DNA of 40,000 bases, taken from NCBI GenBank assembly GCA_016280725.1, contig JAEEHF010000129.1, forward strand, positions 16,160 through 56,159. The letters are read 5' to 3'. Below the pieces are notes generated by a model. It searched no databases, was not told the origin of the DNA, and saw only the letters and a list, made by a program, of their open reading frames with translations. Source of the DNA: Bacillota bacterium (GTDB lineage Bacteria > Bacillota > Clostridia > TANB77 > UBA1234). Position 1 is the stretch's first letter. Every line of letters begins with the position of its first letter. Positions 14,776 through 15,257 of this stretch are shown piece by piece. Both the position numbers and the translations under genes were made by a program.

Positions 14776-15257
14776 CGAACAAGGAAATTAGGTCCTGCGA
14801 GTTACATTTAGTTTGCAGGGACCGTCAATCCCTGTAGGTTTTTTGTGCTTGCAGGGGCTGATGGCTCGAGTTCTCCATAGGAGCGCGTTTGATGTGTTAG
14901 ATGGTGCAAAATCTAACAAATAGCATCAGATGAAAACGGGCGAAAGCGCGTTGCTGGCGAGTCAGCCGGTGTAACTATGGAAAAAGAAGTGCCCGACCGG
15001 TATGAGATGGGACTCACCTACAAGCATGTGGAAGTGACGCGCCACATGGTGGTTTAAAACTTGTAGGGAATCAGGCATAATGCCTTAGGCTTCGGTCCGA
15101 GGAACAACATTATGCCAAGTGTGAATCTTTCTGCTTTGAGAGTGGCTTGGTACCGAAAGGCACTAAGCATGTGGGGCACAATCAAAGGAGAAGGAAACAT
15201 GCGCCACGGAAAAGCCCACGGCACTTACCCGGATTTTGTACATCCGGGGTTTTTTTA
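14776..15257 (+). ncRNA. Large (about 480 nt) structured non-coding RNA of unidentified class, with its own promoter and intrinsic terminator.
   Basis: The region is clearly GC-enriched against AT-rich surroundings. The only ORF here is the implausible 15112-15369. Many local helices are visible: GGTCCTGC/GCAGGGACC (14791-14822), TGATG+GTTAGAT/ATCTAAC+CATCA (14890-14928), CATGTGG/CCACATG (15025-15048) and GGCATAATG/CATTATGCC (15074-15116), the last enclosing a cUUCGg loop. GNRA loops occur at gcGAAAgc (14940-14947) and ccGAAAgg (15153-15160). The terminator is CCCGGAT/ATCCGGG plus a T-run (15228-15257). Confidence 0.7.

Follow-up and report, generated by a model that had tools for sequence, protein, structure and literature searches.

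A Candidate Stand-Alone Structured RNA of About 480 Nucleotides, Outside the Curated RNA Families, in Two Related Species of Uncultured Clostridia

Introduction

Large, elaborately folded bacterial RNAs are rare, and RNase P, OLE, GOLLD, ROOL and raiA each revealed unexpected biochemistry or architecture. ROOL RNA (RF03087) was described by Weinberg et al. 2017 (PMC5737381) and has been the subject of cryo-EM work (PMC12286853), in which OLE, GOLLD and ROOL were reported to self-assemble through loop contacts. ROOL RNA is about 581 nt long, contains six multi-helix junctions and three pseudoknots and is found in three phyla, and both ROOL and GOLLD often lie beside tRNA genes or in prophages. 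The other members of this group differ widely in length, with about 610 nt for OLE (RF01071), about 800 nt for GOLLD (RF01998) and about 210 nt for the raiA motif (RF03072). An example unrelated to the curated families would represent an added target for structural and functional work, and it would indicate that RNAs of this kind can be very young or narrowly distributed accessory genes, which pipelines that need many homologues miss by design.

Two further groups of RNAs are relevant here. The first consists of lineage-specific regulators with several hairpins, such as Staphylococcus RNAIII (514 nt) and Clostridium perfringens VR-RNA, which are transcribed from a promoter of their own up to a terminator, occur in very few taxa and are associated with the control of secreted or surface proteins. 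Firmicute attenuators, in turn, usually consist of a structured leader that ends in a terminator. Terminator and antiterminator exclude each other in such leaders and are conserved as alternatives among homologues, and T-box leaders (RF00230) also have a specifier loop, a T-box sequence in the bulge of an antiterminator that competes with the terminator, and a downstream gene related to aminoacyl-tRNA.

The locus considered in this work lies in a 40,000-nt stretch of DNA (the window) from the draft genome of a member of the Clostridia (GCA_016280725.1, contig JAEEHF010000129.1). An earlier note, made from the letters of the window alone, had read positions 14776-15257 as a stand-alone, highly structured RNA of no common large class, and perhaps of a new one. 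This reading was supported by every test that was run, considering that no Rfam family matched, that the promoter and terminator are conserved, that substitutions keep the base pairs and that conservation is far above neutral. The region is, with high probability, a true gene for an RNA of about 480 nt. The main reading, to which a probability of roughly 0.6 is assigned, is that of a genuine stand-alone non-coding RNA gene with its own promoter, a constitutive terminator and three domains, belonging to no curated family and present in two species (the two lineages compared below).

Among the large structured stand-alone bacterial RNAs, this one is most aptly seen as a new example, unrelated to the others and very narrow in its distribution. 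Its likeness to OLE, ROOL, GOLLD and raiA, already pointed out in the earlier note, concerns size and style, and no model of these families matched. As in the case of ROOL, it is large, GC-rich, multi-junction and stand-alone, comes from anaerobic Firmicutes, including those of the rumen, and has transcription signals of its own. Unlike ROOL, it gives no model match at E<=10, is about 480 nt long, has two multi-helix junctions (one three-way and one five-helix) and one or two candidate pseudoknots, lacks a prophage context and was found in two species. A gene for tRNA-Cys is 2.1 kb off, and the neighbours are not phage genes. The RNA resembles OLE, GOLLD and the raiA motif in being an ornate Firmicute RNA rich in helices, with tetraloop caps and with conserved stretches that stay unpaired, but it also fails to match their models at E<=10, and the OapA/OapB-type neighbours of OLE are missing. 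It keeps a self-complementary loop, UGUACA, which recalls the self-assembling OLE, GOLLD and ROOL, although self-assembly is in this case pure speculation.

The similarity to RNAIII and VR-RNA concerns the length, the presence of a promoter and a terminator, and the narrow range. In contrast to these regulators, it has no adjoining quorum-sensing or two-component genes and no peptide gene embedded in it; conserved C-rich anti-Shine-Dalgarno loops were not identified, and no significant duplex with the neighbouring mRNA was predicted. Finally, as in T-box and riboswitch leaders, a structured RNA with an intrinsic terminator lies just upstream of a same-strand gene, and it includes a T-box-like stretch (15143-15158); unlike in T-boxes (RF00230), there is no model match and no antiterminator, and the downstream gene encodes a secreted protein.

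The Transcription Unit

The RNA unit, of about 480 nt, occupies positions 14776-15257 of the plus strand, with a promoter upstream and an intrinsic terminator at its 3' end. The signals found in and next to it are the following:

14696-14727, plus strand: intrinsic terminator of the upstream 271-aa gene (14-bp stem followed by a T run in the scan)
14741-14769, plus strand: promoter of the sigma-70 type (10/12 plus TG in the promoter scan)
15228-15257, plus strand: intrinsic terminator, 3' end of the RNA (terminator scan)

The first of these parts the gene for a 271-aa lipoprotein-like protein from the RNA unit. The promoter is made of TTGACA (14741-14746), a 17-nt spacer that includes the extended -10 TG (14761-14762) and TAACAT (14764-14769), and its position predicts the start of the RNA at about 14776. 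It has the elements described in the earlier note, and its position is kept in the homologue described below. The terminator was likewise confirmed in the sequence: a G+C-rich stem of 6-7 bp, formed by CCCGGA (15228-15233) and UCCGGG (15243-15248), is followed by seven T at 15250-15256, and its hairpin starts one base past the third domain of the RNA. In a 2-kb scan, four terminator-like sites were found versus 0.9 expected. The loop of the RNA terminator holds the self-complementary UGUACA (15237-15242), present in both lineages; in fact, stem and loop are the same in both except for one U, and such conservation of the loop is unusual for a terminator. The GC content, said in the earlier note to be above that of the surroundings, is indeed 0.475-0.50 over 14800-15299 versus 0.28-0.365 in the flanking genes, and about 0.33 in the whole genome.

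Homologues and Distribution

The RNA is present as a single copy in its own genome (G000), and an nhmmer search of this whole genome revealed no paralogues. Collecting homologues, a step proposed in the earlier note, yielded one of full length, in another species of the same genus (G004; L002:1498-1979, minus strand, E 1e-61). It is syntenic, shares 72% identity by BLAST and 74% over aligned columns, and has kept the promoter, the terminator and nearly all helices. Two metagenome contigs (L059 and L060) carry copies almost identical to the G004 RNA.

The BLAST searches covered all 33 genomes of the family plus samples of 400 genomes each from the order, the class and the phylum (about 1200 in total), and the G004 RNA was the sole homologue among them. 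Hits in seven other genomes (G056, G173, G399, G233, G071, G311 and G573) were chance matches of 22-42 nt, and the one in G573 was inspected and discarded as such. In 151 genomes of the order, two covariance models, R1 for domain 2 and R2 for the 3' portion of domain 3 (15117-15227), matched only G000 and G004; a separate match of 27 bits in G031 was discarded, as it lies antisense inside an AT-rich ORF. Exact-pattern scans gave one chance match (Reyranella) in genome contigs, two G004-type copies plus one chance match in metagenome contigs, and, in three scans of viral contigs, chance matches only. Phage and plasmid collections searched by blastn contained no match. These collections were searched as samples or by exact patterns, so the outcome reads as "not found in those searched" and not as "absent". 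As far as searched, the RNA appears to be very narrowly distributed, being carried by two uncultured Clostridia of the gut or rumen that are sister species. The genome of origin was assembled from a metagenome and is a draft, 90% complete and 7% contaminated; a chimeric artefact at the locus is ruled out because the contig is syntenic with that of G004.

Fold and Conservation

The plus strand of the region has a minimum free energy of -190.8 kcal/mol versus -146.2 +/- 6.0 kcal/mol for dinucleotide shuffles (z -7.46), and 0/100 shuffles were as good. The fold of the minus strand is weaker (-148.1 kcal/mol, z -4.83). When folded alone, the G004 RNA is also significantly structured (z -5.78) and shows the same architecture in domains 2 and 3. 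The multiple helices perceived in the earlier note are organized in three predicted domains:

14776-14873, plus strand: domain 1, a long interrupted hairpin (two-lineage consensus fold)
14822-14864, plus strand: candidate pseudoknot between CCGUC(A) at 14822-14827 and (U)GAUGG at 14859-14864 (read from the sequence)
14875-14980, plus strand: domain 2, a three-way junction closed by CCAUAG/CUAUGG (consensus fold)
14987-15226, plus strand: domain 3, a multi-helix junction with closing stem 14987-14995/15219-15226 (consensus fold, curated alignment)

Domain 1 is closed by the pairs GAAC/GUUC (14777-14780/14870-14873) and contains an apical hairpin (14814-14836) with the loop CCGUCAA (14822-14828), and a 23-nt stretch (14808-14830) is identical in both lineages. 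This loop probably forms a pseudoknot with UGAUGG, located 30 nt downstream, and an extended version of the pairing is used in the minimum free energy structure of G004. Both partners are invariant in the two lineages, so the pairing has no covariation behind it. Domain 2 comprises a bulged hairpin of 20 bp (14883-14949) and a shorter one of 6 bp (14953-14970), and compensatory changes are found in its closing stem as well as in the long and the short hairpin. Domain 3 is a five-helix junction made of the closing stem and four hairpins: 15004-15015, 15018-15067 (whose 8-bp outer helix has four compensatory pairs in the curated alignment), 15074-15116 (capped by UUCG) and 15119-15202 (capped by GAAA). 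Two further conserved parts of this domain, the internal loop GGUGGU and the 3' tail, which is single-stranded, could pair with each other. The three tetraloops listed in the earlier note are present, with UUCG at 15091-15094 and GAAA at 14942-14945 and 15155-15158. None of the three caps is kept in G004, the hairpins themselves being kept there with other caps. The 9-bp stem said to enclose the UUCG loop is real (15074-15082/15108-15116), but it does not close the loop directly: it carries a further 4-bp stem and a 3-bp stem, and the 3-bp one closes UUCG.

When the RNA is aligned with that of G004, conservation begins at the -35 hexamer, skips diverged bases, resumes exactly at 14776 and continues through the last T of the terminator, where it ceases. 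G004, L059 and L060 share with the window the -35 hexamer, the length of the spacer, the TG and the position of the -10 hexamer, and differ in the surrounding bases. With 74% identity, the RNA is as similar as the neighbouring conserved gene, whose nucleotide sequence is 75% identical, and the fourfold-degenerate sites of the two flanking genes are only 56% and 43% identical. The contrast between 74% and 43-56% indicates that the RNA is under purifying selection.

The consensus obtained with RNAalifold contains 124 pairs, none of them broken, with 21 one-sided compatible and 11 compensatory changes. Its energy is -134.3 kcal/mol versus -71.5 +/- 6.2 kcal/mol for column-shuffled alignments (z -10), and that of the reverse strand is -88.8 kcal/mol. 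The number of compensatory changes is marginal, as column shuffles give 6.7 +/- 2.3 and 13 of 200 reach 11. Curation of the alignment fixed two register errors, in the 3' strand of the 15018-15067 helix and in the tip of the 15074-15116 hairpin, and resulted in 134 pairs with 15 compensatory changes; having been fitted to the structure, this alignment leans towards it. Across both alignments, there are 11-15 compensatory changes, 21-23 one-sided compatible changes and 0-2 broken pairs. The comparison of conservation and covariation that the earlier note had outlined gave conservation far above that of neutral sites together with a covariation that is suggestive but statistically weak, coming from two independent lineages. 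The combination generally taken to mark structured non-coding RNAs, above-neutral conservation with pair-keeping substitutions, is found here, the compensatory count being marginal by itself.

Genomic Setting and Accessory Cassette

The order of the genes is tex, the 271-aa lipoprotein-like gene, the RNA, a gene for a 402-aa secreted protein, the convergent engB and a tRNA-Cys gene. The latter (17386-17459) is on the other strand, 2.1 kb from the RNA and beyond two genes. The proteins encoded at either side are Tex and EngB or have no Pfam family. The gene next to the RNA is:

15434-16642, plus strand: gene for a 402-aa secreted protein, with a signal peptide and a C-terminal Ig-like domain

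Among 5.8 billion clustered proteins, this protein has one other orthologue only. Its last ~100 residues recur, with 35-49% identity, at the C-terminus of predicted surface proteins of very large size (about 6000 aa at most) encoded in this family, and a related protein (P0004) carries Pfam Big_2 (PF02368).

Both the RNA and the 402-aa gene are missing at the same site in five relatives, namely G005, G006 and G007, of the same genus, and the metagenome lineages L070 and L071. In all of them, the 271-aa gene is found directly before engB, with one hairpin or bidirectional terminator between the two genes (L070:1322-1389, L071:1315-1351), and a search of the syntenic site for diverged copies of the RNA showed it to be empty in each of the five. 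The 271-aa protein of the window is 76-78% identical to those of L070 and L071 and 74.5% identical to that of G004, and a phylogenetic tree does not settle the order of the four closest lineages. Given that equally close lineages differ in this respect and that the tree leaves their order open, the RNA and the 402-aa gene are considered to come and go as one accessory cassette, of about 1.9 kb (window 14689-16677). Since close relatives do without the RNA, it is dispensable. No direct or inverted repeats of the kind found at the ends of mobile elements surround the cassette, beyond a similarity between T runs. These T runs (14723-14742 and 15250-15269) follow the two terminators on either side of the RNA unit and share 80% of their 20 nt, and this likeness most likely reflects low-complexity chance and not a target-site duplication.

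A functional link between the RNA and the 402-aa gene may be supposed; in a duplex prediction, antisense pairing of the RNA with the 402-aa mRNA was no better than in shuffled controls. The space between them includes two further elements. Directly past the RNA terminator, there is a palindrome (15262-15332) with 35-nt arms, made of two inverted units of a dispersed repeat, other units of which occur in the window at 7761-7783, 7797-7819 and 9594-9616. As this 69-nt palindrome is absent from the orthologous spacer of G004, it represents a lineage-specific insertion and is not part of the RNA. Further on, a conserved block, ATTAAATTTAGRTTACAARGC, is followed about 25 nt later by TATAAT, both at 15340-15389 and in the G004 contig (L002, around 1420-1470, minus strand). 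This block and TATAAT may represent a promoter that belongs to the 402-aa gene, together with a site for an operator or activator. The block is not spaced from TATAAT as a standard -35 would be.

Stand-Alone RNA or Leader

The proximity of the RNA to the 402-aa gene raises the alternative that it is a very long cis-acting 5' leader of this gene, an attenuator or riboswitch-like sensor in which read-through of the terminator at 15228-15257 would be conditional. Such a role would fit the location of the RNA, directly upstream of the gene and on the same strand in both lineages, the strict co-occurrence of the two, which are gained or lost together, and the placement of a terminator after a structured leader, which is the usual layout of Firmicute attenuators. 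However, the pairing probability of the terminator is at least 0.94 in both lineages, and its strands have no conserved alternative partner: if pairing to the 3' strand is prevented by deleting or blocking it, its 5' counterpart stays unpaired in one lineage and takes a non-homologous partner in the other. No riboswitch or T-box model matches at E<=10, and an aptamer of about 450 nt would greatly exceed every known riboswitch or T-box in size, the whole element being two to three times longer than known leaders. The partial T-box motif reported in the earlier note does exist as a T-box-like stretch at 15143-15158, but it turned out to be the 5' strand of an ordinary covarying hairpin. The insertion of the 69-nt repeat palindrome between terminator and gene in one lineage also argues against a leader, as does the conserved block with TATAAT past the terminator in both, which suggests a separate promoter. 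In addition, the RNA is single copy, so the genes for the paralogues of the 402-aa protein lack a leader of this kind. The observation of the earlier note that a terminator separates the RNA from the next gene stands, with the terminator at 15228-15257 and the gene starting at 15434. Taken together, a leader is unlikely, and a stand-alone trans-acting RNA is favoured because the terminator lacks a conserved antiterminator.

A Functional Gene or a Passenger

A second alternative is that the region was left behind or carried along by a mobile or foreign element, being for example what remains of an intron, an RNA of phage origin or a piece of some foreign gene; it would then have no function in the host, and its copies in the two species would be alike only by shared ancestry or recent transfer. 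Its patchy distribution among equally close relatives, its GC content, unlike that of the host, its position within a two-gene accessory cassette and the existence of other unannotated GC-rich islands in the genome are all compatible with this possibility. Nevertheless, a functionless passenger would not be expected to show 74% identity when the fourfold sites are near-saturated (43-56%), nor substitutions that preferentially spare the helices, nor a promoter and a terminator that are both kept. The phage, plasmid and viral collections searched contained no match, no intron or ribozyme model matched, and no direct or inverted repeats beyond the T runs flank the locus. A passenger origin is therefore regarded as quite improbable.

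Comparison with Described RNA Families

The Rfam search put forward in the earlier note was carried out with cmscan, for the whole window at the gathering score and for positions 14650-15400 against all 4227 models of Rfam 15 at E<=10. In the first case, the tRNA-Cys alone was found. In the second, only chance hairpin matches appeared, mostly on the neighbouring palindrome; there was no match to ROOL, OLE, GOLLD, raiA, HEARO, RNase P or tmRNA, nor to SRP, 6S, T-box, riboswitch, intron or ribozyme models. No family matched, and the earlier exclusion of SRP RNA and group II introns agrees with the lack of matches to such models at this threshold. The RNA belongs to no curated RNA family, which supports the possibility of a new class.

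Of the common large RNAs that the earlier note had set aside, RNase P RNA (RF00010 or RF00011) is essential and present once per genome, and tmRNA (RF00023) has a tRNA-like end and a tag reading frame; both are encoded elsewhere in this genome. The RNase P RNA, of type A (268.7 bits), is on another contig (C95:59655-59997), and so is the 351-nt tmRNA (173.5 bits, C12:10404-10754). No local similarity of the RNA to either of them was found, and ARAGORN detected no tmRNA over 14600-17600. The earlier note had also remarked on a superficial likeness to the 5' end of tmRNA. The likeness is indeed superficial, as GGGGCUGAU, common to the RNA and to tmRNA, is a 9-mer only, while the stretch concerned, GGGGCTGATGG, is at 14854-14864 and not at 14862.

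It could still be argued that the RNA belongs to a described class (ROOL, OLE, GOLLD, raiA, HEARO/omega RNA, RNase P, tmRNA, 6S or SRP) but has diverged too far for the Rfam models to recognise it. Its size, GC richness, ornate fold and type of host (anaerobic gut or rumen Firmicutes) resemble those of ROOL and OLE (PMC5737381), and there is a tRNA gene at a distance of 2 kb, such genes being frequent neighbours of ROOL and GOLLD. Yet the 4227 models yielded chance hairpins only even at E<=10, the genome has its RNase P and tmRNA at other places and without local similarity to the RNA, and there is no prophage, IscB or OapA-like context, all of which makes this explanation very improbable.

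That the region encodes one or more small proteins, for instance through the 85-aa ORF of the plus strand or the antisense ORFs of 43 to 56 aa, has next to no credibility: ORFs of 43-85 aa do exist on both strands, and antisense ORFs of 67-96 aa in G004, but no reading frame is conserved with G004 (pieces of at most 34 aa match, in shifting frames), the indels that separate the two (1, 2, 3, 5 and 7 nt) are not in threes and leave only short ungapped blocks, no frame of the region matches Pfam, in keeping with the earlier claim that no credible ORF is present, and the 85-aa ORF crosses both the terminator and the lineage-specific palindrome.

Possible Mode of Action

Under the reading of a stand-alone RNA gene, a discrete transcript of about 480 nt would be produced from the sigma-70-type promoter, starting at about 14776 and stopping at the constitutive intrinsic terminator at 15228-15257, with both ends predicted from these signals. 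The transcript would fold into three domains, namely a long hairpin whose loop is probably engaged in a pseudoknot, followed by one junction of three helices and another of five, and it would presumably act in trans through its folded shape. It might serve as a scaffold or have a protein partner. Alternatively, it might be a lineage-specific regulator in the manner of RNAIII or VR-RNA, possibly tied to the co-inherited surface-protein gene. By analogy with the self-assembling RNAs, self-association through the conserved palindromic UGUACA loop is possible, if speculative. The analysis identified no target, partner or catalytic motif. A more ambitious proposal would see in this RNA the first representative of a class of large ornate RNAs not described before, dedicated to self-assembly, to catalysis or to a specific RNP and carried in a surface-protein cassette, but it is put forward as a tentative one, at clearly less than even odds. 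For now, the value of the finding is limited by the two lineages that carry the RNA and by there being nothing that links it to a function.

Other GC-Rich and tmRNA-Like Sequences in the Genome

More stretches that are GC-rich (GC 0.42-0.48) and free of long ORFs were observed on five other contigs of the same genome:

C57, 11134-12108, 16699-17518, 18011-18807 and 21599-21955: GC-rich stretches
C123, 1505-2301: GC-rich stretch
C55, 40216-40721: GC-rich stretch
C125, 4602-5129: GC-rich stretch
C59, 24521-25003: GC-rich stretch

At the gathering score, these stretches contained no Rfam matches except for one tRNA in that of C55. Contig C57, in which several of them occur in a row, is the second most GC-rich contig of the genome (0.373). 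They could correspond to other RNAs, to recoded genes or to contamination. Lastly, two 80-nt matches to the tmRNA model, at C59:18879-18958 and C57:40895-40974, exceeded its cut-off (about 64 bits). Both are separate from the real 351-nt tmRNA on C12, and they are probably tRNA-like sequences.
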